Below, piece after piece: positions 38,433-50,368 of a DNA stretch of 64,000 nt (its first letter is position 1; each line of letters opens with the position of its first letter). Under the pieces are notes generated by a model. That model had not been told where the DNA came from and made no database searches. It was given only the letters and a program-made list of their open reading frames with translations. The DNA is from Paludibacteraceae bacterium (lineage in GTDB: Bacteria > Bacteroidota > Bacteroidia > Bacteroidales > Paludibacteraceae), in NCBI GenBank assembly GCA_045654945.1, contig JAZOOG010000017.1, forward strand, positions 46,066-110,065. The letters run 5' to 3'. Position numbers and translations under genes: made by a program.

Positions 38433-39724
38433 CACAGATACCTCATCCACTCCGCCATTTTCTGTTCTTGCGGGCTGCCTTGCGCCTGCCAGAGTCGTGT
38501 GCCTTGCAGCGCATCGGGCATGAACTGTTGTTTGACAAAGTGGTTCGGATAGTCGTGCGCATACTTATATCCCTCGCCGTATCCCAACTCGTCCATGAGC
38601 TTCGTGGGCGCATTGCGCAGATGCAATGGCACTGGCAGGTTGCCTGTCTTCTCCACCAACTCCAGTGCCTGATTGATTGCTAAATATGCGGAGTTGGATT
38701 TCTGCGAAGTGGCGAGATACACTGTCGCCATCGCCAGCGGTATGCGTCCTTCGGGCCAACCTATTTTCTGCAATGTGTCGAAGCATGCGTTGGCCACCAA
38801 CATCGCATTGGGGTTCGCCAACCCTATATCTTCGCTCGCGGAGATCACCAAACGGCGGGCTATAAATTTCGGGTCTTCGCCTGCGGCTACCATGCGTGCC
38901 AACCAGTACAGTGCTGCATCGGGGTCGCTGCCGCGGATCGACTTGATAAACGCGGAGATGATGTCATAATGCAGTTCACCGTCCTTATCGTATGCCACGG
39001 GGTTCTGCTGCAGCTGCTTGGTGACGGTCTCGTTGTCCAGTATTTTGACCCCTGCATTGGTGACCAATTCCACGATGTTGAGCAGTTTGCGTGCATCGCC
39101 ACCCGAATAGCGTAGTATGCTTTCTGTCTCGCGCAGTTCGATATGCATACTGCGGATATACGCATCTTCGGTCAGTGCGCGTTGCAGCAGTTCCAGCAGG
39201 TCCTCTTTCTCCAATGACTTCAGCACATACACTTGACAGCGACTCAGCAGTGGTGTAATAACCTCAAACGATGGGTTCTCTGTGGTAGCACCTATCAGGG
39301 TGATAGTTCCATCTTCTACTGCGCCTAATAGACTGTCTTGCTGCGACTTAGAGAAACGGTGAATCTCATCGATAAACAATATCGCTCGCCCGACTCCCGA
39401 TTCCCGATTCCCGATACCCGATTCCCGATCTCCAAACAACCCTCTATCCATCGCCGCAAATCGTTTCGCTTTATCGATCACCTCACGCACTTCTTTCACA
39501 CCGCTGGTAACGGCGCTGAGGGTGTAGAACGGACGTTCCAACTGGTGTGCGATGATGCGTGCCAGTGTGGTCTTGCCCACGCCTGGAGGCCCCCAAAGGA
39601 TAAAGGACGACAGACTGCCGTTCTCTATCATCTGTCGTAGGACGGCTCCTTCGCCTACCAGGTGCTTTTGTCCTATGTATTCATTGAGCGTCTTCGGACG
39701 CAATCGCTCTGCTAATGGCAACAT
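38414..39724 (-). CDS. rarA: Replication-associated recombination protein A (MgsA/RarA AAA+ ATPase)
   Basis: LWGPPGVGKTTLA, FIDEIHRFSKSQQD, MgsA C-terminal domain. It contains the in-frame insert GDRESGIGNRESGVGR from a CGGGAAT heptamer array. Confidence 0.92.
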   Translation of the reverse strand: MLPLAERLRPKTLNEYIGQKHLVGEGAVLRQMIENGSLSSFILWGPPGVGKTTLARIIAHQLERPFYTLSAVTSGVKEVREVIDKAKRFAAMDRGLFGDRESGIGNRESGVGRAILFIDEIHRFSKSQQDSLLGAVEDGTITLIGATTENPSFEVITPLLSRCQVYVLKSLEKEDLLELLQRALTEDAYIRSMHIELRETESILRYSGGDARKLLNIVELVTNAGVKILDNETVTKQLQQNPVAYDKDGELHYDIISAFIKSIRGSDPDAALYWLARMVAAGEDPKFIARRLVISASEDIGLANPNAMLVANACFDTLQKIGWPEGRIPLAMATVYLATSQKSNSAYLAINQALELVEKTGNLPVPLHLRNAPTKLMDELGYGEGYKYAHDYPNHFVKQQFMPDALQGTRLWQAQGSPQEQKMAEWMRYLWGEERG

Positions 39725-39725
39725 C

Positions 39726-39880
39726 TGTTTTTAGTTTTTAGTTTTAAGTGTAGAGTGTAGGGTGTAGAGTGTAATGGCTGGTAATATGCGGCTTTGCCGC
39801 TATTCGTGCCTTTAACCTTTCGCCTTTAACCTTTCGCCTTTAACCTCTCGCCTTTAACCTCATCGCCTCCTCGCCTATAT
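39726..39880. repeat. Composite element: TAGTTTT and AGTGTAG (R2, reverse) arrays, core GCGGCTTTGCCGCTATTCGTGCC, then R1 array
   Basis: tgtttttagtttttagttttaagtgtagagtgtagggtgtagagtgta, atggctggtaatatgcggctttgccgctattcgtgcc, then tttaacctttcgcctttaacctttcgcctttaacctctcgcctttaacctcatcgcctcctcgcc. It fills the recN|rarA spacer and reaches the recN stop. Confidence 0.9.
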
Positions 39881-41506
39881 CCTCCTCATTTTCTCTATCT
39901 CCTCCTCATGCTCTTCAGCGCTCAGTTCGCGGATATGTGTTTCGGTGCGGACCTCTGTATCCTCTTTATATACTAAGTAGTGGTGTTCGCCTTTCGTGGC
40001 CACCTGTGGCAGGTGGGTGATGCTTATCACCTGACGCGAGACGGCCATCTGCCGCATGATCTCACCCATCTGACTGGCTATCGCTCCGCTCACACCTGTG
40101 TCTATTTCGTCAAAGATAATCGTCGGTAGTCCGTTATTGCGGGCTATTAACGCTTTGATACACAGCATCAGTCGGCTGATCTCACCGCCCGATGCCACTT
40201 CCGCTACGCGACGTAGCGATTGGTTCAGGTTCGCAGCGAACATAAACTGCACATTGTCTTTTCCCGTCTCTTGGTACTCTTCTGTGGGCTGAATCTCCAC
40301 GGCTACTTTAGCGTGCGCTACACCCAATCCCTGCATATCCTTCACCAACTGCTCTGCTATTGTCTGTGTCACTGCTTGGCGCGACTGCGTCAGCTGGCTC
40401 GCCTCTTCGCTCAGTCTCTCCAGGGCCTGCTCCGCTTGCGCTTGCAGTTTCTCCAGTTCCTCGTCCATATTCTCCAATCGTTGCACCTGTGTCTCTAATT
40501 CGTCGCGCAATGCTATCAGTTCCTCCACAGTCTGCACATGGTGTTTCTTCATCAGCGTCTGCAGCATACTCAGTCGCTCCTGCACCTGCTCCAGGCGCAT
40601 AGGGTCGATCTCTGTGCGATCGTACTGGCGTTGGATATCCGATACTATATCTTTCAACTCAATCTCTACACTGCTGAGACGCTCTTCTATCTCCGATGCC
40701 CGATTTCCTATACCCGACCTACTGGCATGTATGAGCGACAATGCGCCCTGATCGCTATCCAATTGCTGTAGGGCAGTCGCGAGGGCAGACTGTATCTCTT
40801 CGGCATGTGCCAAACGATACTCCTCTTCTTCCAATGCCTCCATCTCGCCTGCCATCAGCTGAGCTTCTGCCAACTGATGGTATTGCCATTGCATATAGTC
40901 CGCATCCGTCTGCGCTTTCTTGGCCATTGCTTGTGCTTCGCGCAGACTGGTCATTGCTGCCTGATAGGAGGTGTACGCTTCGTTATATGCCTCGCGCTCG
41001 GCTCCGTTGCCTGCTATCGCATCCACCACTGCTATCTGAAACAGGTCATCGCCTATCATCAGACTCTCGTGCTGCGAATGGATGTCTATGAGTTGGCGAG
41101 CCAATGCTTTCAGCTCCGTTTGCGTCACCACCTCGTCGTTCACGAACGACCGCGAACGTCCATTCTGATTAAGTTCCCTACGGATAATTACCTCTCGCCT
41201 CTCGCCTCTCGCCTCATCACCTTTAGCCTTTAGCCTCTCGCCTTTCGCCTCCTCGCCTTTAGCCTCTCGCCTCTCGCCTCTCGCCTCATCGCCTTTTGCC
41301 TCAAACGTCGCCTCTATCACGCATCGCTCCTCACCTTCGGTGATGCTCTTGCTGTCGGCGCGAGCGCCCATCACCAAGTTCAGCGCACCCAGTATGATGC
41401 TCTTACCGGCACCCGTCTCACCCGTCATAACGGAGAATCCCTCACGGAAATCAATGTCCAAATGAGAGATAAGTGCGTAGTTGCGTATGTGTAGATGACT
41501 TAGCAT
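39875..41506 (-). CDS. recN: DNA repair protein RecN
   Basis: MLSHLHIRNYALI..., Walker A GETGAGKS, SMC-like coiled coil, C-terminal SGGE signature. The start is set at ATG 41506, downstream of the -7 box. It has a ~37-aa repeat-encoded insert: EAKGDEARGERREAKGEEAKGERLKAKGDEARGERRE. Confidence 0.92.
   Translation of the reverse strand: MLSHLHIRNYALISHLDIDFREGFSVMTGETGAGKSIILGALNLVMGARADSKSITEGEERCVIEATFEAKGDEARGERREAKGEEAKGERLKAKGDEARGERREVIIRRELNQNGRSRSFVNDEVVTQTELKALARQLIDIHSQHESLMIGDDLFQIAVVDAIAGNGAEREAYNEAYTSYQAAMTSLREAQAMAKKAQTDADYMQWQYHQLAEAQLMAGEMEALEEEEYRLAHAEEIQSALATALQQLDSDQGALSLIHASRSGIGNRASEIEERLSSVEIELKDIVSDIQRQYDRTEIDPMRLEQVQERLSMLQTLMKKHHVQTVEELIALRDELETQVQRLENMDEELEKLQAQAEQALERLSEEASQLTQSRQAVTQTIAEQLVKDMQGLGVAHAKVAVEIQPTEEYQETGKDNVQFMFAANLNQSLRRVAEVASGGEISRLMLCIKALIARNNGLPTIIFDEIDTGVSGAIASQMGEIMRQMAVSRQVISITHLPQVATKGEHHYLVYKEDTEVRTETHIRELSAEEHEEEIEKMRRI
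41190..41300. repeat. R1 heptamer array of about 110 bp inside the recN coding sequence
   Basis: cctctcgcctctcgcctctcgcctcatcacctttagcctttagcctctcgcctttcgcctcctcgcctttagcctctcgcctctcgcctctcgcctcatcgcc. Confidence 0.9.
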
Positions 41507-41516
41507 AATTTCGCTG

Positions 41517-41550
41517 CAAAGGTACAAAAAAATATGCATATATGCAAATT
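41517..41550 (-). promoter_or_regulatory. recN promoter
   Basis: The minus strand reads aaTTTGcatatatgcatatttttttgTACCTTTGcagc, 10 nt before the ATG at 41506. Confidence 0.6.
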
Positions 41551-41592
41551 CAATCCCAAAAAATACGAAAAATGTAGCAATAATTACGAAAT

Positions 41593-41625
41593 GTTTGGTT
41601 ATTTCAAAATTTCTTTGTACCTTTG
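41593..41625 (+). promoter_or_regulatory. Promoter for the 5-alpha-reductase-like gene, divergent from recN
   Basis: atgTTTGgttatttcaaaatttctttgTACCTTTG. Confidence 0.6.
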
Positions 41626-41651
41626 TCCGCGAATTTTTAATAATACAGCTT

Positions 41652-42437
41652 ATGGATATTTCTACACTCGAATCGTTTTATAATTTCCTCTTCGTGCTAT
41701 TCCTTGTCGGATTAGTAGTTTTTGTGGCATTGTATTTTGTGGATGCGGGTTATGGCAAGATGCGTTCAGAGAAGTGGGGCCCCGCTATCAATAATAAGGT
41801 GGGTTGGTGCCTCATGGAGATGCCTGTCTTTGTGGTGATGCTCTATCTCTGGGCGTTGTCCGATGTCAAGTTCCAGTTGCCTTATTTGGTCTTCTTCTTG
41901 ATTTTCCAGTTCCACTATTTTCAACGCTCCTTCATCTTTCCTTTCCTGTTGAAGGGCAATAGCAAGATGCCACTGATGATTATGTTCTTCTCTATGGTGT
42001 GGAATTTGGTCAATGGCTATATCCAGGGCTATTGGCTTTTCCATTTGGCACCTGTTTTTGCTTCGCATCTCTACACGCCTGCGTGGTTCTCTGACCCTCG
42101 CTTCATTGTAGGTGCAGTGATTTTTGTGGCTGGTTGGGTCATCAATATGCACTCCGACCATGTCATTCGTCATTTGCGCAAACCGGGTGATACCAATCAC
42201 TATTTGCCTAAGAAGGGTATGTACCGATTTGTCACCAGTGCCAACTACTTGGGTGAAATCACCGAGTGGCTCGGCTTTGCTATTCTGACTTGGTCTTGGG
42301 CAGGACTAACTTTCTTCTGGTTCTCGTGCTGCAATCTGGTTCCTCGTGCCAATTCTATTTACAACAAATATAAACAGGAGTTTGCTTCCGAGTTCGACGA
42401 GAAACGCCTCAAACGCATCATTCCGTTTATCTACTAA
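41652..42437 (+). CDS. 3-oxo-5-alpha-steroid 4-dehydrogenase (steroid 5-alpha-reductase) family membrane protein
   Basis: LRKPGDTNHYLPKKGMYRFVTSANYLGEITEWLGFA and ...RIIPFIY align closely with the SRD5A C-terminal signature (LRKPGDTGYKIPRGGLFEYV..ANYFGEI.EW.G.A ... IIPF). Multi-TM. The start is set at ATG 41652. Confidence 0.85.
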   Translation: MDISTLESFYNFLFVLFLVGLVVFVALYFVDAGYGKMRSEKWGPAINNKVGWCLMEMPVFVVMLYLWALSDVKFQLPYLVFFLIFQFHYFQRSFIFPFLLKGNSKMPLMIMFFSMVWNLVNGYIQGYWLFHLAPVFASHLYTPAWFSDPRFIVGAVIFVAGWVINMHSDHVIRHLRKPGDTNHYLPKKGMYRFVTSANYLGEITEWLGFAILTWSWAGLTFFWFSCCNLVPRANSIYNKYKQEFASEFDEKRLKRIIPFIY

Positions 42438-42470
42438 GTCTCATAATTCAAAATTCATAATTCAAAATTT
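42437..42470. repeat. Heptamer array, TTCATAA/TTCAAAA family (R5)
   Basis: agtctcataattcaaaattcataattcaaaatt fills the spacer up to the next start codon. Confidence 0.8.
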
Positions 42471-42471
42471 G

Positions 42472-43713
42472 ATGAGCAATCTCCTTTTCACCGAGCACCA
42501 GCTCGGACCTATCACCTTGCGCAACCGCGCTATCCGTTCGGCTGCTTTCGAGAATATGGCTTACGGCAACCGTCCCAGCCAGGACCTCTATAACTACCAC
42601 ACCGCTGTGGCGCGTGGTGGTGCAGCTATGACCACTGTGGCATACTGCTCTGTCACCCGTTCGGGCGTCTCTTTCGATGGCCAACTCTATATCCACGACG
42701 AGATCAAGGACGACCTCAAGCGCCTCACCGATGGTATCCACGCCGAGGGCGCCAAGGCCAGTATCCAGCTCGGTCACTGTGGCAATATGACCCACTTCTA
42801 TACCTGCAAGTGCCTACCTGTAGGTGCCAGCACGGGCTTCAACCTCTATTCGCCTACGCTCCACCGCGCGCTGCGCAAAGACGAGATTCAGGACATCGTC
42901 CATGCTTTTGGCCATGCCGTGGATTTCTGCCGCGAGTGTGGTTTTGACTGTGTGGAGATCCATGCAGGCCATGGCTATCTTATTTCGCAATTCCTCTCGC
43001 CTTATACCAATCACCGTCGCGATGAGTACGGTGGCTCGCTCGAGAACCGTATGCGTTTCATGAACGAAGTCATGGCGGAGGTCATGAAGCACGCAGGCAA
43101 CGATATGGCGGTGGTAGTCAAGACCAATATGTACGATGGCTTCAAGTCGGGCTTGAAGGTCGAGGAGTGCATTCGCATCGCACAGGAGATTGAGAAGCAC
43201 GGCGTGCATGCATTGGTGTTGACAGCTGGCTTCGTGAGCAAGGCACCTTTCACCGTGATGGGTGGTGCTATGCCTATCAAGACCTTGGCGCACTATATGA
43301 ATCCTTGGTCTTTCTGGTGGTTGCGTTTGGCGTTGCGTTTCGTGGGTCATCTGATGATTCCTACGGTGCCTTTCAAGGAGCTTTTCTTCCTCGATACGGC
43401 CAAGCAGTTCCGCAAGGCGCTGAAGATGCCGCTTATTTATGTGGGTGGAGTCATGGGTCGTGAGAATGCGGAGACGGCATTGGCGGCGGGCTTTGATTTT
43501 GTACAGATTGGCCATGCTCTGGTGCGTGATACGGATTTTGTGAATAAGATGCGTGAGGAGCAGTATCATTCGGAGTGTAAGCGTAGCAATTATTGTGTGG
43601 CGCGCATGTACACTCTGGACATGAAGTGCCATGAGTGCGATAAGGATATCCCAGCTTACCTCAAGCGCGAAGCGCTCAAGTACGAGCAGATGTGGTATCC
43701 CGAGAAGAAGTAG
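42472..43713 (+). CDS. Old-yellow-enzyme family NADH:flavin oxidoreductase (BaiCD/BaiH / 2,4-dienoyl-CoA-reductase N-terminal type)
   Basis: HAGHGYLISQFLSPYTNHRRDEYGGSLENRMRF is the OYE signature. A C-terminal Cys cluster (CKRSNYCVARMYTLDMKCHEC) is present. There is no C-terminal FAD/NAD(P) domain. The start is set at ATG 42472. Confidence 0.8.
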   Translation: MSNLLFTEHQLGPITLRNRAIRSAAFENMAYGNRPSQDLYNYHTAVARGGAAMTTVAYCSVTRSGVSFDGQLYIHDEIKDDLKRLTDGIHAEGAKASIQLGHCGNMTHFYTCKCLPVGASTGFNLYSPTLHRALRKDEIQDIVHAFGHAVDFCRECGFDCVEIHAGHGYLISQFLSPYTNHRRDEYGGSLENRMRFMNEVMAEVMKHAGNDMAVVVKTNMYDGFKSGLKVEECIRIAQEIEKHGVHALVLTAGFVSKAPFTVMGGAMPIKTLAHYMNPWSFWWLRLALRFVGHLMIPTVPFKELFFLDTAKQFRKALKMPLIYVGGVMGRENAETALAAGFDFVQIGHALVRDTDFVNKMREEQYHSECKRSNYCVARMYTLDMKCHECDKDIPAYLKREALKYEQMWYPEKK

Positions 43714-43715
43714 TT

Positions 43716-43748
43716 TCTCGGCTATTGGCTATTGGCTATCGGCTATAA
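43716..43748. repeat. R4 heptamer array (GGCTATT x ~4)
   Basis: tttctcggctattggctattggctatcggctataag, immediately after the stop codon. Confidence 0.85.
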
Positions 43749-43782
43749 GATTAAGCGGTTGAGCGCAGCGTTATTCGGGGAT

Positions 43783-44040
43783 TTTTTTATATTTTTGTAG
43801 CGAAGCGTATTTTGTATGAAAAGATAATTGATTTTAATTGTCTCTCAAGTTGTCTAAGTTGTCTGATAAATAATCATTTTTGTTTTGGGTTGCCAGCGAC
43901 GTGTCGCTCTTCCAACCCAAACAAAAAATCCCCCTTGAATTGACAATAATTAACACCTTAATTGACGTCTATTGTCTTAAAAACATAACCTGTTATTTAT
44001 ATATATTTTTGTAGCGAAGCGTATTTTTGTATTAAAAAAA
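43783..44040 (+). repeat. Intergenic cassette of about 260 bp, copy A (promoter-like module, hairpin, promoter-like module)
   Basis: Near-identical to 46110-46376. It starts and ends with ATATTTTTGTAG-CGAAGC-GTATTTTTGTAT. It contains AGTTGTCT x3 and the extended hairpin TTTTTGTTTTGGGTTG...CAACCCAAACAAAAAA (43877-43927). Confidence 0.85.
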
Positions 44041-44056
44041 TAAACTAAAAAAGAAC

Positions 44057-44884
44057 ATGCTTTCACTTGTCACAGGCGCCTCATCGGGCATTGGCCTCCA
44101 ATACGCCACCCAGCTTGCGCGCGATTACCATACCGACCTCTTGCTGGTCAGCAACCAGCAGCAGGAGCTTCAGCAGGTAGCCACCGAATTGGCTGCTCAA
44201 TACGGTGTTCGTACGATTCCGCTCTACGCGGACCTCTCCCAGCCAGACGCTGCGGAGCGCTTGCACCAGTATTGTCTGGACAACCACCTCGTGGTGGATA
44301 TCCTCATCAACAATGCGGGTGTCTTTTTCTTCAATCCCTATTGCGAGACCTCGATGAAGCGTATCGAGTTGATTCTCAACCTCCATATGATCACCGTGGC
44401 TAAACTCTGCCGCTTGTTTGGCGAGCAGATGATCCATCGCCAGTTGACTGCCGACGAGCAGTCGCAGACTATCTGTGGCAAGGCGCGCCAGAAGGGTTAT
44501 ATCCTCAATATGTCTTCCATGTCTGCATGGATGGCTATGCCGGGTATCCAGTCTTATAATGCTACCAAGGCTTTCATCTACAATTTCTCCAAGTCCTTGT
44601 GGTACGAACTGCGCCCTAAGGGTGTGTCTATCACTGTCATGACACCGGGTGCGGTAGATACGGCGCTATTTGGTCTCGCGCCTCATCTGCGCCGTCTGGC
44701 GGTAGCCTTGACGGTCTCTATCCCGCCGGAGAAACTGGTCAAGCGTGCATTGCGTAAGATGTTCCGTGGCAAGAAGGCTGATATGCCGGGTGTCATCAAC
44801 TGGCTGGCGACTCCATTGCTCAAGCACACCCCGGACTGGCTGGTGTTCTTGGTGATGAAGTTCATCGGCAAATACCAAAAATAA
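44057..44884 (+). CDS. Short-chain dehydrogenase/reductase (candidate hydroxysteroid dehydrogenase)
   Basis: TGASSGIG, NNAG and S...YNATK are the classical SDR motifs. Confidence 0.85.
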   Translation: MLSLVTGASSGIGLQYATQLARDYHTDLLLVSNQQQELQQVATELAAQYGVRTIPLYADLSQPDAAERLHQYCLDNHLVVDILINNAGVFFFNPYCETSMKRIELILNLHMITVAKLCRLFGEQMIHRQLTADEQSQTICGKARQKGYILNMSSMSAWMAMPGIQSYNATKAFIYNFSKSLWYELRPKGVSITVMTPGAVDTALFGLAPHLRRLAVALTVSIPPEKLVKRALRKMFRGKKADMPGVINWLATPLLKHTPDWLVFLVMKFIGKYQK

Positions 44885-44917
44885 TTCCTAATTCAAAATT
44901 CATAATTCATAATTCAA
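44884..44917. repeat. R5 heptamer array
   Basis: attcctaattcaaaattcataattcataattcaa runs from the stop codon to the gmd ATG. Confidence 0.8.
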
Positions 44918-46021
44918 ATGAAGACCGCTCTTATTACAGGTATAACGGGTCAAGACGGCTCGTATTTGGCAGAATTTCTCTTGGAGAAAGGCTACGATGT
45001 GCATGGCATCATTCGCCGTAGTTCAGTGGACTACCGCGAGCGTATTGCGCATCTCGAAGGTAAAGAACATTTCCACCTCCACTATGGCGATATGTCCGAC
45101 TCCATGGGCCTCATTCAGGTGATTGGTAAGGTGCGTCCAGACGAGATCTACAACTTAGCAGCGCAGAGCCATGTGCAGGTCAGCTTCGACTCGCCTGAGT
45201 TCACCGCCGACATCGATGCTACGGGCGTTCTGCGCGTCTTGGAGGCAGTGCGTGCCTGCGGACTCACCCACACCTGCCGTATCTACCAGGCTTCTACTTC
45301 TGAGCTCTATGGCAAGGTAGAGGAGGTGCCACAAAACGAGAATACGCCTTTCCACCCTTATTCGCCTTATGCTGTAGCCAAGCTCTATGGCTATTGGATT
45401 GTCAAGGAGTACCGCGAGGCATATAATATGTTCTGCTGTTCGGGTATCTTGTTCAACCACGAGTCGGAGCGCCGTGGCGAGACTTTCGTAACGCGTAAGA
45501 TCACCCTCGCGGCAGCGCGCATCGCACAGGGCAAGCAGGAGAAACTCTATTTGGGCAACCTCTCTTCGTTGCGCGATTGGGGCTATGCCAAGGATTATGT
45601 AGAATGTATGTGGCTCATCTTGCAGCACGAGACACCCGAGGATTTTGTTATTGCTACGGGCGAGCAGCACTCGGTGCGTGAGTTCTGCGATTTGGCTTTC
45701 CGCGAGGCGGGTATCACCTTGGAGTTCCGTGGCGAGGGTGCTGAGGAGACGGGTGTTTGCGTAGAGGGTCCTAAGCATTTGTTGGGCAAGACATTGGTAG
45801 AGGTGTCGCCTGATTTCTATCGTCCAACGGATGTGGTGAACTTGTGGGGTGACCCTACCAAGGCCAAGAAGGCGTTGGGTTGGAATCCATCGAAGACTAC
45901 TTTTGAGGAGTTGGTTCGTTTGATGGTGCGCCACGATATGCAGAAGGTGGCTGCGGACCACGCAGCGGAGCAGGCTCGTGTGAATCTTGCCGAATACCTC
46001 GAACGCGGCATTGTTAAGTAG
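44918..46021 (+). CDS. gmd: GDP-mannose 4,6-dehydratase
   Basis: [40 protein letters not shown]. Confidence 0.95.
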
Positions 46022-46029
46022 TATCCTTT

Positions 46030-46111
46030 CCCCTCCCTTCAAGGGAGGTTGGGAGAGAATCCTTGAAATTTCCGAAGGACATTGTACAATAGTGGTAGTG
46101 AGTAGCAGCAT
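46030..46111 (+). repeat. Dispersed repeat CCTCCCTTCAAGGGAGG...CCGAAGGACATTGTA.AATAGTGGTAGT.AGTAGCAGCAT, copy 1 (3'-truncated)
   Basis: The same sequence occurs at 47461-47562 and partly at 60675-60740. It starts with the hairpin CCTCCCTTCAAGGGAGG just after the gmd stop. Confidence 0.8.
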
Positions 46112-46376
46112 TTTTTAATATTTTTGTAGCGAAGCGTATTTTTGTATGAAAGAATAATTGATTTTAATTGTCTCTCAAGTTGTCTAAGTTGTCTGATAAA
46201 GCATCATTTTTGTTTTGGGTTGCTAGCGACGTGTCGCTCTTCCAACCCAAACAAAAAATCCCCCTTGATTGACAATAATTGACACCTAAAATTGACGTCT
46301 ATTGTCTTAAAAAATATAACCTGTTATTTTTAAATATTTTTGTAGGCACAAAGTGCCGTATTTATGTATTAAAAAA
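46110..46376 (+). repeat. Intergenic cassette of about 260 bp, copy B
   Basis: Aligns with 43783-44040. In the distal promoter-like module the CGAAGC spacer is replaced by the hairpin GGCACAAAGTGCC. Confidence 0.85.
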
Positions 46377-47318
46377 ATGGAAAAAAACGCCAAAATCTAC
46401 ATCGCAGGTCACCGTGGTATGGTGGGTTCTGCTATCATGCGCGAGTTGCAGCGTCAGGGATACCATAATATTATCACGCGCACGCACGCGGAACTTGACC
46501 TTTGTCGTCAGTCGGAGGTAGAGTCTTTTTTTGCTACCGAGCAGCCCGAGTATGTGTTCTTGGCGGCGGCTAAGGTGGGTGGTATCATCGCCAATCAGTC
46601 GGCATTGGCGGACTTCATGTACGACAATATGATCATGGAGATGAATGTCATCCATTCGGCTTGGCAGAACGGTTGCAAGAAGTTGCTTTTCTTGGGCTCC
46701 AGTTGCATCTATCCTCGTTTGGCGCCTCAGCCTATGAAGGAGAATTGCCTCTTGACCAGCGAGTTAGAGAAGACCAACGAGGCGTATGCTTTGGCTAAGA
46801 TCTCGGGTCTTAAGTACTGCGAGTATCTCAATCGCCAGTATGGTACGGACTATATATCTGTCATGCCTACCAATCTCTATGGTCCTAACGACAACTACCA
46901 TCCCGAGCACAGCCATGTCTTGCCTGCTCTCATCCGTCGTTTCCACGAGGCTAAGGAGAGTGGGGTAGAGTCTGTCACCTGTTGGGGCGATGGCAGTCCA
47001 TTGCGTGAGTTCTTGTATGTAGACGATTTGGCTAACCTTTGTGTTTTCCTCATGAATCACTATTCGGGCAACGAGACGGTCAATGCGGGTACGGGCAAGG
47101 AACTCAGTATCAAGGCATTGACGGAGCTGGTGGCTAAGGTAGTGGGGTACGAGGGTCGTATTGAGTGGGACACTACTCGTCCCAATGGCACGCCTCGTAA
47201 GCTCTTGGATGTCAGCAAGGCTAAGGCTTTAGGTTGGGAATATCGTACTGAGTTAGAGGATGGTATCCGTCTGGCGTATGATGATTTCCTACACAACCCC
47301 ATGCGTGCCGAACGCTAA
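46377..47318 (+). CDS. fcl: GDP-L-fucose synthase
   Basis: [21 protein letters not shown], extended-SDR epimerase/reductase. The start is set at ATG 46377 ([11 protein letters not shown]). Confidence 0.93.
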
Positions 47319-47460
47319 GTGTAGCTTCTGCTATATATATCTTTGGTTCCGTGTAGTTCAGTGTCGTTCAGTGGTCAACCATAACCGCAGAAAGACGTCC
47401 CTCCGTGTGAGATAATACCTCCCACAGACAAGCACGGACAAGCACGGAAACACAGAACTT

Positions 47461-47562
47461 TCCTCCCTTCAAGGGAGGTTGGGAGAATCCTTGAAATTTC
47501 CGAAGGACATTGTAAAATAGTGGTAGTTAGTAGCAGTATGCTACGTCAATGGATGGTAGCTT
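47461..47562 (+). repeat. Dispersed repeat (CCGAAGGACATTG family), copy 2, longest
   Basis: tcctcccttcaagggaggttgggagaatccttgaaatttccgaaggacattgtaaaatagtggtagttagtagcagtatgctacgtcaatggatggtagct. Confidence 0.8.
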
Positions 47563-47650
47563 GGTCGATGAGGAAGTTTACTTACGCCATCGCCCAAGAT
47601 AGCGTCCATAGGAGATATGAGCATCATATCTCAACTACCACTTACATCCT

Positions 47651-47705
47651 GATATTTTTAAATATTTTTGTAGGCACAAAGTGCCGTATTTTTGTATTAA
47701 AAACC
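47651..47705 (+). repeat. Solo copy of the promoter-like module of the 260-bp cassette
   Basis: gatatttttaaatatttttgtaggcacaaagtgccgtatttttgtattaaaaa is identical in type to 46325-46372. Confidence 0.8.
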
Positions 47706-47754
47706 ATCCCGCTTAGCATTATTTATTGTTTTTTTTCAAAAAAAATGCTCGCTT

Positions 47755-47788
47755 TATTTGCATATTCGCATTATTTGTTGTATCTTTG
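47755..47788 (+). promoter_or_regulatory. Promoter driving the small ORF / leader transcript
   Basis: tttatTTGcatattcgcattatttgttgTATCTTTGcagc. Confidence 0.55.
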
Positions 47789-47802
47789 CAGCGTCAATTC
47801 AA

Positions 47803-47886
47803 ATGAAAACGGTTAAGACACTCCACTTTGATGCGATCAACACTATGTATATGGGCGCCAAACGCATGTTTTTCTACTCTTTCTGA
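47803..47886 (+). CDS. Candidate 27-aa peptide MKTVKTLHFDAINTMYMGAKRMFFYSF (alternatively part of a small RNA)
   Basis: The ATG lies about 10 nt after the predicted TSS and the stop is TGA. AAGACACTCCAC inside the ORF is complementary to GTTGGAGTG...GTGTCTT just after the stop. A strong terminator follows. Confidence 0.3.
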   Translation: MKTVKTLHFDAINTMYMGAKRMFFYSF

Positions 47887-47909
47887 GTTGGAGTGTTTGT
47901 GTGTGTCTT

Positions 47910-47942
47910 AGGACGATAGACGGTGGTCTGTCGTCTTTTTTG
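47910..47942 (+). terminator. Rho-independent terminator
   Basis: AGGACGATAGAC ggtg GTCTGTCGTCTT is a 12-bp stem followed by TTTTTG. Confidence 0.8.
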
Positions 47943-48326
47943 TGTTGACAACCAGACGCTTGATTGTGTTCTTTTGTTGTTTCGGCTACATAGCGTATCT
48001 ATGTTGTCGGGTATGCTGTTTTTTGTTAAGTAGCTATCAATGATCTTGTTTCGACCTTGGGTCATAGAAACGGACATATATTTGCACATAGAAAAACACA
48101 CTTCTTTGAAGTGTTCTAAGATATATTAATATAGGGGAAAAGGGGTTGAAATAGCAGGTTCGTGGTGTTTGTGATGTAACGATACCACATCGTTACCACC
48201 TCGTACGTGCTCGTACATGGAAAACAGATTTTATGGTATCAAACAAACGTCCCTTTGTTTGCTACATGAGATGCACCATTTGTAGCGAAAACTACCTATC
48301 TGTTTCGCGACTGTTAGGCGACCATG

Positions 48327-48358
48327 ATAGGACATCTATAGGACATCTATAGGACTTA
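48327..48358. repeat. Tandem 12-mer ATAGGACATCT(A), about 2.5 units
   Basis: ataggacatctataggacatctataggactta. Confidence 0.8.
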
Positions 48359-48384
48359 TATAAGACAAATAAAATAACAATATA

Positions 48385-48393
48385 CCCCCCCCC
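48385..48393. repeat. Homopolymeric C9 tract
   Basis: tataCCCCCCCCCagaag, about 260 bp upstream of the first surface-protein gene. Confidence 0.9.
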
Positions 48394-48585
48394 AGAAGAA
48401 AGGGGAATTACCAACAACCTAAATCGAACTTTGCGAGTTCGATTTAAGAGGAGGGATGACGGCGAGCCAAACTCGTGTAAATGAGTTTCTTCTCGCAAGT
48501 ACATTCCGACGAAGGCACAGGTCATTGGGTTGACCTCTGCTCACAAAATAATGTTACAGGTTCAGAGCGAAGCGATGAGGTTAGT

Positions 48586-48624
48586 GCCTCTAACCTCTCG
48601 CCTTTAGCCTCTAACCTCTAACCT
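48586..48624. repeat. R1 heptamer array upstream of the surface-protein operon
   Basis: gcctctaacctctcgcctttagcctctaacctctaacct. Confidence 0.85.
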
Positions 48625-48655
48625 AAAAAATAGTAAACAAAGAACATAAGATATT

Positions 48656-50368
48656 ATGAAACAATCTACTACTTTCGCCAGCGTGGCAAATAAATTTTCA
48701 AAGGTATTGCAAGGGTATACTATGGGTATACGATTCACTGCCATTTTAACCATACTCCTCACAATGGGAATTGGACAAGTATGGGGTGCACCTTCCGCCA
48801 GGTATTATCTAATCGGAGATCCCACAGGGAGCTGGAATAAATCAGAAACGTATAAAATCAAAACATGGTACAATAAAGATGGTCAATACATTTTATATGT
48901 TTACGCCAGCAAAGACAGCTTCTTCCGTCTAAAAAAAGATGATGATGCAAACTATGGACCATCATCTGATCAATCCACTTCACAAGGTTATGGTGCTTAC
49001 AACGAGAATGCATGGAAGTATAATGGGAATTCTGGTATAGTTCGTTTTGGTGTAGATGAAACTGCTGGTAATAATGGCGAACATTATCCTTATGTCTTTT
49101 GGGAAAAAGTTGATATTAAAATTAAACACGGTTGGAATGGCGGTGACTGGACGTCTCAACAAATGGAAGCGCAAAGCGATGGAACATATACTTATATTGG
49201 TCAATATAGTGGAACCCAAGGTGCCAACTTTGGTATAGAGGGTAGTCAAGCTACATTCAAATATATTTCTGACACTAAATTAATTGGATCTCCTCAAAAG
49301 GGGCATAGATGTTTGTTTACATACAGTCCTGTAGGATATATTGGTTATGGCTCAGAAACGCAAAATACAGGTTCTGCAACTATCACTCGTCTCTATACGA
49401 TTACATACAACGGAAATGGTCACACTGGCGGTACAGTACCAGAAGCGGTTGATAAAAAGCACGGAACAAACATCACACTATCCAATAGCACTCCAACTCG
49501 TACTGGATATACTTTTACCGGATGGAATACTAAACAAAATGGCACAGGTACTTCTTATGCCAAAGGTGCAACCTATTCAACCGATGCAGATGTAACATTA
49601 TATGCACAATGGAAGGGTAATAATTATACAGTTACTCTTAATGATAATGGTGGTTCGGGTGGTTCAGGAACAGTTTCTGCCACTTATGGTTCCGCAATGC
49701 CTGCTATTAAAATACCAACTCGCAGCGGTTATACTTTTAATGGATATTGGACGGGAACAACAGTTAATAGTACGCAATACTACAAAGCAGATGGTAGCAG
49801 TGCAAAGAACTGGGATAAAGCAGGCAATACTACCACTCTCTATGCACTTTGGATACCAAACACCTTTACCGTACATTTTGACGGCAATGGCAATACAAGT
49901 GGTTCAATGACTGACCAACCATTTACTTATGATGTATCACAAAATTTAAAAACTAATGCATTTGAAAAAACTGGTCATACATTTGCAGGTTGGGCGAAAA
50001 CATTAAATGGTGCTGTTGTATATAGCGATAAACAGAATGTTAAAAATTTAACTACTGATAACAACGCTACTGTTACCCTCTACGCTCAATGGACACTCAA
50101 CACCTATCCTGTCAAATGGTATGTCAATGGTGAAGAATTAACAGGTGCGGCGACAACCGTCGCTCATGGCAGCAAGGTGACTACTGTCCCAGAGGTTGAT
50201 TTGAATACCTATTGCGAAGGTAGTGATGTGCTTGCTGGTTGGACAACAGCTCCGATGGAGAACGCTAGTGTCACGGCTCCCGCTCAACTATATAAGACAA
50301 TAGATGACTTCCCGACAGCGGAAAGACCTCAAACGTTCTACGCCGTCTTTGCGAATTATGTTGAATAA
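48656..50368 (+). CDS. Secreted surface protein 1: N-terminal beta-rich domain plus about 4 Listeria-Bacteroides repeats
   Basis: Long N-region signal (..ANKFSKV..TILLTMGIGQVWGA). Repeats of the type YTITYNGNGHTGG...PTRTGYTFTGWNT...GTSYAKGATY...TLYAQW. It ends FYAVFANYVE with no T9SS tail. Confidence 0.8.
   Translation: MKQSTTFASVANKFSKVLQGYTMGIRFTAILTILLTMGIGQVWGAPSARYYLIGDPTGSWNKSETYKIKTWYNKDGQYILYVYASKDSFFRLKKDDDANYGPSSDQSTSQGYGAYNENAWKYNGNSGIVRFGVDETAGNNGEHYPYVFWEKVDIKIKHGWNGGDWTSQQMEAQSDGTYTYIGQYSGTQGANFGIEGSQATFKYISDTKLIGSPQKGHRCLFTYSPVGYIGYGSETQNTGSATITRLYTITYNGNGHTGGTVPEAVDKKHGTNITLSNSTPTRTGYTFTGWNTKQNGTGTSYAKGATYSTDADVTLYAQWKGNNYTVTLNDNGGSGGSGTVSATYGSAMPAIKIPTRSGYTFNGYWTGTTVNSTQYYKADGSSAKNWDKAGNTTTLYALWIPNTFTVHFDGNGNTSGSMTDQPFTYDVSQNLKTNAFEKTGHTFAGWAKTLNGAVVYSDKQNVKNLTTDNNATVTLYAQWTLNTYPVKWYVNGEELTGAATTVAHGSKVTTVPEVDLNTYCEGSDVLAGWTTAPMENASVTAPAQLYKTIDDFPTAERPQTFYAVFANYVE

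Follow-up and report, generated by a model that had tools for sequence, protein, structure and literature searches.

A putative steroid-converting gene trio is described here from the window, a 64,000-nucleotide stretch of the genome of an uncultured Paludibacteraceae bacterium (GenBank assembly GCA_045654945.1, contig JAZOOG010000017.1, positions 46,066 to 110,065). Its three genes encode a 5-alpha-reductase homologue (5AR), an ene-reductase from the family of old yellow enzymes (OYE) and a short-chain dehydrogenase/reductase (SDR), and the trio is probably the Paludibacteraceae version of a Bacteroidales module that remodels steroid rings A and B. The first two genes correspond to the 5AR and 5-beta-reductase (5BR) pair already known from human gut Bacteroidales; new is the third gene, a member of a subfamily designated SDR-A, which occurs as the sole dehydrogenase in place of the SDR-B of the published clusters. 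The three genes are as follows.

41652-42437, + strand: 5AR, SRD5A-type 5-alpha-reductase, 261 amino acids (PF02544, E 2.8e-40; 138.2 bits vs a cut-off of 22.6)
42472-43713, + strand: OYE, single-domain old-yellow-enzyme ene-reductase and ortholog of '5BR', 413 amino acids (PF00724, E 5.6e-55)
44057-44884, + strand: SDR, classical, of the 'SDR-A' subfamily, 275 amino acids (PF00106, E 2.3e-34)

All three open reading frames are intact and co-directional on the + strand, separated by 34 bp (5AR-OYE) and 343 bp (OYE-SDR). The initial annotation, made from the sequence without database searches, had placed three co-directional genes here, and both the coordinates and the Pfam families agree with it. 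The OYE frame can be extended 5' to a GTG at 42346, overlapping 5AR; homologue alignments begin at the ATG at 42472.

The published counterpart is the cluster of Li et al., in which 5AR, 5BR and a 3beta-hydroxysteroid dehydrogenase (3beta-HSDH) are encoded together in P. dorei, P. merdae and P. vulgatus (Bacdor_03091/03090/03089, Parmer_04016-18 and BVU_1964-66), the 5BR having been found as a homolog of BaiCD (10.1101/2021.01.08.425963). In that work Bacdor_03090 converted 3-oxolithocholic acid (3-oxoLCA) to 3-oxo-delta4-LCA, Bacdor_03091 converted 3-oxo-delta4-LCA to 3-oxoalloLCA, and purified Bacdor_03089 yielded isoalloLCA; production was lost upon deletion of the P. merdae cluster, strains without the cluster SDR still made isoalloLCA, and in some clusters an inserted 'putative 17beta-HSDH' preceded the 3beta-HSDH homolog (10.1101/2021.01.08.425963). 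Ridlon's review summarises Sato et al. 2021 likewise and describes 5AR as widespread in Bacteroidota (PMC10382948).

The window genes were compared with named loci of Parabacteroides acidifaciens, O. laneus YIT 12061, several Bacteroides, Phocaeicola massiliensis and P. vulgatus ATCC 8482. The last strain stands in for P. merdae ATCC 43184 and P. dorei DSM 17855, and its cluster (L296) was equated with BVU_1964-66 by strain name. The window 5AR is 57% identical to that of P. vulgatus ATCC 8482 and 55-57% identical to those of the other named species. For the OYE, the values are 58% over 409 amino acids for P. vulgatus ATCC 8482, 55% for O. laneus and 55-59% for the other named species. Because identity reaches 57-58%, the order and adjacency of the genes are the same and the tree position is nested, the window 5AR-OYE pair is orthologous by sequence to the published 5AR-5BR pair. 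All three window genes had initially been matched to the 5AR/5BR/3-beta-HSDH trio; identity, synteny and tree bear this out for 5AR and 5BR, but not for the 3-beta-HSDH, to which the third gene is only 22-24% identical.

Residues 105-261 of 5AR cover model positions 2-150 of the 150 in PF02544 (Steroid_dh), and the C-terminal signature string quoted in the initial annotation is found in this 261-residue protein, scored at 138 bits. Among structures in the PDB, PbSRD5A (7C83, E 8.7e-58) and human SRD5A2 (7BW1, E 1.5e-41) match over the full length and a TECR-type enzyme matches at E 5.5e-9 only, the comparison covering these three enzymes. E56, Y89 and R92 are invariant among 268 homologues. 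E56 and Y89 align with E57 and Y91 of SRD5A2, the catalytic pair to which published SRD5A2 work assigns binding of the 3-oxo group. The protein has at least five hydrophobic segments, and weak DUF1295 and PEMT matches were also seen. The sequence thus places 5AR with the SRD5A1/2 type far more strongly than with TECR-like or polyprenol-type enzymes. In a maximum-likelihood tree of 71 sequences, the window 5AR falls in a Paludibacteraceae clade (SH-aLRT 100), whose sister group is made up of Aphodosoma and further Paludibacteraceae (98); the two groups lie inside a 48-row clade (96) with Bacteroides, Parabacteroides, O. laneus and Butyricimonas, and paralogs of ~40% identity form the outgroup.

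The OYE carries PF00724 alone and is the sole gene with this domain in the genome. It had been annotated as a BaiCD-BaiH-like oxidoreductase without the C-terminal FAD/NAD domain. That domain is indeed absent, but membership of the BaiCD/BaiH group is ruled out by the missing domain and by the score: the BaiCD model NF041087 yields 196 bits, far below its cut-off of 825, and is covered only at positions 4-256 of 642, its N-terminal half. The OYE is therefore not a BaiCD-type iron-sulphur (Fe-S) flavoenzyme. Its AlphaFold2 model (pLDDT 89.7) is closest in fold to the stand-alone OYEs TsER, YqjM and XenA and to the barrel of 2-naphthoyl-CoA reductase (TM 0.72-0.78). H164, H167 and Y169, invariant in alignments of 168 and 41 sequences, are the His/His/Tyr set of YqjM-type OYEs, and the FMN of the enzyme presumably receives its hydride from NAD(P)H. 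Four cysteines (C103, C369, C375 and C386, one of them within a GHCGN motif) are conserved at 99-100% in 168 orthologs, and H387 is at least 90% conserved in the 41-sequence alignment; the conserved cysteines may form a metal or Fe-S site.

The third protein is a classical SDR, as first described, with TGxxxGxG, NNAG and Ser...Tyr-x3-Lys all present; T6-G7...G11-x-G13, N85-N86-A87-G88, S153 and Y167-x3-K171 are kept in at least 95% of 97 homologues. It is 41-47% identical to the in-cluster SDRs of O. laneus, Butyricimonas, Gabonibacter and Rikenellaceae, and orthology with the Odoribacter-type in-cluster SDR-A is plausible. In the SDR-A tree the window gene groups, with strong support (99), with the in-cluster copies found in Paludibacteraceae and Aphodosoma. 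The best NCBIfam subgroups are PRK07454/PRK09072-like for the window SDR and PRK06197/PRK05854-like for SDR-B. SDR-B is the sole SDR in the Bacteroides, Parabacteroides and Phocaeicola clusters and is thus the type that was purified by Li et al. Identification of the window SDR with this cluster 3-beta-HSDH (Bacdor_03089/BVU_1966 type) was rejected on orthology, given the 22-24% identity and the different SDR subgroup. SDR-B was not found anywhere in the window genome, where the best match has 25% identity (E 3e-9), and SDR-A was not found in B. xylanisolvens. The window SDR is predicted to be a steroid keto-reductase or hydroxysteroid dehydrogenase; although non-orthologous to SDR-B, SDR-A could still reduce 3-oxoalloLCA to isoalloLCA.

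The genome also encodes an SDR-A paralog outside the cluster (G000:C8:49826-50578; L342:2527-3294), 43% identical to the window SDR and placed in a separate clade (SH-aLRT 100) that includes several families. Its neighbours, a PP-loop ATPase, a shikimate-dehydrogenase-like gene and a HAD gene, are uninformative and provide no steroid context.

Linkage of the three genes was followed in the 80 closest loci, nearly all from Paludibacteraceae or unclassified Bacteroidales metagenome-assembled genomes (MAGs) of ruminant and horse guts. In the window the trio is flanked by recN on the opposite strand (TIGR00634 above cut-off) and by gmd (TIGR01472 above cut-off) and fcl. 5AR, OYE and SDR are adjacent in ~70 of the 80 loci, recN, gmd and fcl accompany them in a minority only, and at least 68 loci have the SDR after the OYE, with or without gmd/fcl. 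5AR and OYE adjoin each other in every related locus for which enough sequence is available. Retention of the trio while the flanks vary indicates that the linkage is not due to chance.

A wider, family-balanced sample of 301 Bacteroidales genomes contained a 5AR homologue in 60, in two tiers of identity. In the tier of 48-77% identity, an OYE adjoins the 5AR wherever enough flanking DNA was fetched. Three architectures were found: 5AR-OYE-SDR-A in 9 genomes of 5 families, all 9 genomes being without an SDR-B match of E 1e-35 or better in their entire sequence; 5AR-OYE-SDR-A-SDR-B in 8 genomes of 5 families; and 5AR-OYE-SDR-B in 4-5 genomes of 3 families. In-cluster SDR-A is present in 17 of the 28 cluster-bearing genomes of the sample, from 10 families.

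The second tier consists of distant SRD5A-like paralogs of 35-43% identity (L111:7811-8569 in G296, L113:7649-8413 in G242 and L114:7180-7974 in G018; also in G276 and G295). In five loci with wide flanks no OYE was found beside them, and in three of these five the paralog adjoins an extended SDR of the 3Beta_HSD/NAD-epimerase family, a pairing that appears undescribed.

In a culture collection, 5AR and 5BR were adjacent in most Bacteroidales species except Prevotellaceae, and the cluster was reported absent from cultured Prevotellaceae (10.1101/2024.03.08.584156). Three MAGs labelled Prevotellaceae or Prevotella (L301, L304 and L327) carry a 5AR homologue 63-79% identical to that of P. massiliensis, followed in L301 and L304 by OYE and SDR-B; these could be mislabelled bins or a real exception.

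The window genome measures 2.2 Mb, is 96.9% complete and has its nearest record in a MAG from dairy-cattle caecum (97% identity). The close relatives (over 83% identity) all derive from hindgut or faecal samples (caecum, colon, rectum, faeces). The initial annotation had taken the host for a Prevotella-like genome and expected it to extend the taxonomic range of the cluster. The near relatives are all Paludibacteraceae MAGs, which rules out a Prevotella-like host, and the extension is modest because the cluster has already been reported as widespread in Bacteroidales (10.1101/2021.01.08.425963; 10.1101/2024.03.08.584156; PMC10382948). Elsewhere the genome carries a single gene of the choloylglycine hydrolase/bile-salt-hydrolase family (CBAH; 210 bits; G000:C35:7365-8303, L340).

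In the proposed pathway, the soluble, FMN-dependent OYE ('5BR') would interconvert 5-beta-3-oxo steroids and 3-oxo-delta4 enones, with His164 and His167 holding the C3 carbonyl and Tyr169 donating or accepting the proton. The membrane-bound 5AR would then use NADPH to convert the 3-oxo-delta4 enone into a flat 5-alpha (allo) 3-oxo steroid. The target of the SDR would be a keto or hydroxyl group on the rings, the 3-oxo group being the likeliest; the enzyme would either finish a 3-hydroxy allo-steroid or provide the 3-oxo substrate, starting from a 3-hydroxy steroid. In the cattle hindgut, the likeliest substrates would be secondary bile acids (derivatives of LCA or deoxycholic acid, DCA), which would be turned into allo or isoallo bile acids. 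We infer the substrate and which way each step runs, as well as where on the steroid, and with what stereochemistry, the SDR reacts. A bile-acid substrate is supported by the activity of assayed homologues on bile-acid intermediates, by the hindgut and faecal origin of the relatives and by the CBAH-family gene.

Several observations weigh against a bile-acid module of this kind. The enzymes that have been assayed all come from other lineages. The window SDR shares just 22% identity with SDR-B of P. vulgatus (E 2.7e-6) and 24% with that of P. acidifaciens, and searches for SDR-A specificity in PDB, NCBIfam and Atlas returned generic SDR matches only. The backbone of the SDR-A tree, which links in-cluster groups of different families, is weak, and the in-cluster genes are not recovered as one clade apart from out-of-cluster paralogs. 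Because the closest matches are generic and the backbone is weak, position and stereochemistry cannot be assigned to SDR-A. In the window genome, a cassette with promoter-like modules parts the SDR from 5AR-OYE (see below). Finally, 13 of the 80 closest loci belong to rumen, reticulum or omasum MAGs (9 RUG and 4 RGIG), from sites at which no bile would be expected, and each of these loci has the trio at full length.

Bile enters downstream of these foregut compartments, which makes plant or other steroids a realistic alternative, and the caveat attached to the trio at the outset, that its substrate could equally be another steroid, stands and is reinforced by the rumen-derived relatives. The native substrates could be dietary plant steroids, namely phytosterol-derived 4-en-3-ones and steroidal sapogenin ketones, reduced to 5-alpha/5-beta stanols or sapogenins; we regard this as possible, though clearly less likely than the bile-acid reading. 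It is favoured by the generally broad acceptance of 3-oxo-delta4 steroids by SRD5A and OYE-type enzymes. Such promiscuity has been shown for other gut 5-beta-reductases (PMC12238238, PMC13692258). However, the window relatives above 83% identity are all hindgut or faecal, a MAG sample label is no proof of habitat, the only homologues assayed act on bile-acid intermediates (10.1101/2021.01.08.425963), and the genome has a BSH-family gene.

It is improbable that the SDR lies outside the pathway, as an unrelated housekeeping reductase transcribed with gmd from the cassette promoter. The 343-bp spacer with its promoter-like modules 5' of the SDR, the gap of only 33 bp to gmd, the 43%-identical paralog without steroid context and the isoalloLCA made by strains lacking the cluster SDR (Li et al.) would all fit such a gene. 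Against it, the order OYE-SDR is kept in at least 68 loci irrespective of gmd/fcl, often with gaps of 10-30 bp, and in-cluster SDR-A recurs in 17 of 28 cluster genomes from 10 families, with the paralog in a clade of its own (SH-aLRT 100). Least probable of all is a non-steroid module, with a polyprenol or fatty enoyl lipid as the compound reduced by the SRD5A-like protein and detoxification of generic enones as the task of the OYE: PF02544 does include polyprenol reductases and TECR, the weak DUF1295 and PEMT matches are there and many homologues are named 'DUF1295 domain-containing protein' at NCBI, but the match to SRD5A2/PbSRD5A (E 1e-41 to 1e-57, vs 5.5e-9 for the TECR type), the invariant Glu/Tyr pair and the demonstrated bile-acid activity of Phocaeicola/Parabacteroides orthologs (10.1101/2021.01.08.425963) argue otherwise.

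The intergenic elements of the locus are the following.

41618..41625, + strand: TAccTTTG motif, read from sequence, 27 bp 5' of the 5AR start
43780..44045, + strand: intergenic cassette of ~266 bp, two promoter-like modules around a hairpin
43781-43813 and 43995-44027: the two modules of the OYE-SDR cassette, 33 nt each
43882-43922: hairpin of the cassette

The TAccTTTG motif lies in the 112-bp divergent spacer between recN and 5AR; it is of the Bacteroidetes -7 promoter type, and its predicted promoter role follows established knowledge of Bacteroides promoters. A repeat cassette of ~260 bp with promoter-like modules had been noted before the third gene, and it was recovered as the ~266-bp element within the 343-bp spacer. 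A second copy, 92% identical, precedes fcl (matched at 46100-46385, with the cassette placed at 46110-46376), and the hairpin core recurs exactly at 46212. These two are the only full copies in the genome, both in the window, alongside ~28 partial module matches. The duplicated modules are promoter-like by sequence, of the Bacteroidetes promoter type, and through the cassette the SDR, together with gmd downstream, probably has a promoter of its own. Since OYE-SDR gaps in relatives are as short as 10-30 bp, the cassette is an insertion into an older operon. No Rfam match was obtained across 39500-48700. Heptamer/14-mer tandem repeats fill the spacers at 42441-42469 (5AR/OYE), 43720-43746 (OYE/cassette) and 44881-44916 (SDR/gmd), and a tandem-repeat array at 41191-41302 lies in frame within recN.

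Allo and isoallo bile acids made through the human gut Bacteroidales cluster affect regulatory T cells and inhibit Gram-positive pathogens (10.1101/2021.01.08.425963; PMC10382948). The 5AR-OYE-SDR-B layout of Bacteroides and Parabacteroides, to which earlier studies refer, is one of three, next to 5AR-OYE-SDR-A-SDR-B and 5AR-OYE-SDR-A, and the uncharacterised SDR-A is the commoner third gene across Bacteroidales families and the sole one in several lineages, including the abundant ruminant Paludibacteraceae. Its function would tell the type of product (3-alpha or 3-beta, bile acid or plant steroid) and whether marker surveys that use the Bacteroides 3-beta-HSDH miss most producers. More tentatively, the 5AR-OYE-SDR-A trio of Paludibacteraceae in the herbivore fore- and hindgut might work mainly on plant steroids, with SDR-A setting the stereochemistry of the 3-hydroxyl; in a related reading, SDR-A might be a 3-alpha-HSDH. 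The former would provide a genetic basis for the 5-alpha/5-beta stanols and reduced sapogenins typical of ruminant digesta, and the latter would allow the trio to make allo bile acids from LCA or DCA with no partner organism.

Among known systems, human SRD5A2 (7BW1) and PbSRD5A (7C83) share full-length homology with the window 5AR, including the catalytic Glu/Tyr and the NADPH-binding C-terminal motifs, whereas the window gene shares its operon with genes for an ene-reductase and an SDR. The chemistry proposed for the window OYE, in which the delta4 bond of 3-oxo steroids is reduced or oxidised, is that of the Fe-S flavoenzymes BaiCD/BaiH, Ci2350, OsrB and IsmB and of BaiP/BaiJ of Firmicutes, the last two belonging to a family other than SRD5A (10.1101/2022.08.09.503364). 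BaiCD has the OYE TIM-barrel in common with the window OYE, but the Firmicutes Fe-S ene-reductases are multi-domain proteins of ~640 amino acids with FAD/NAD domains, unlike the single-domain window enzyme, which folds like stand-alone OYEs. The clusters of Odoribacter, Butyricimonas, Gabonibacter and Rikenellaceae (5AR-OYE-SDR-A-SDR-B) resemble the window in having SDR-A directly after the OYE, and differ in retaining SDR-B after it. The isoalloLCA cluster differs from the window in its third gene, which belongs to another SDR subfamily (22% identity), in the repeat cassette that precedes the window SDR and in the host, here an uncultured ruminant Paludibacteraceae. The two nevertheless share the same order on the same strand, 5AR followed by an OYE of ~410 amino acids and then an SDR, and their first two genes are orthologous.

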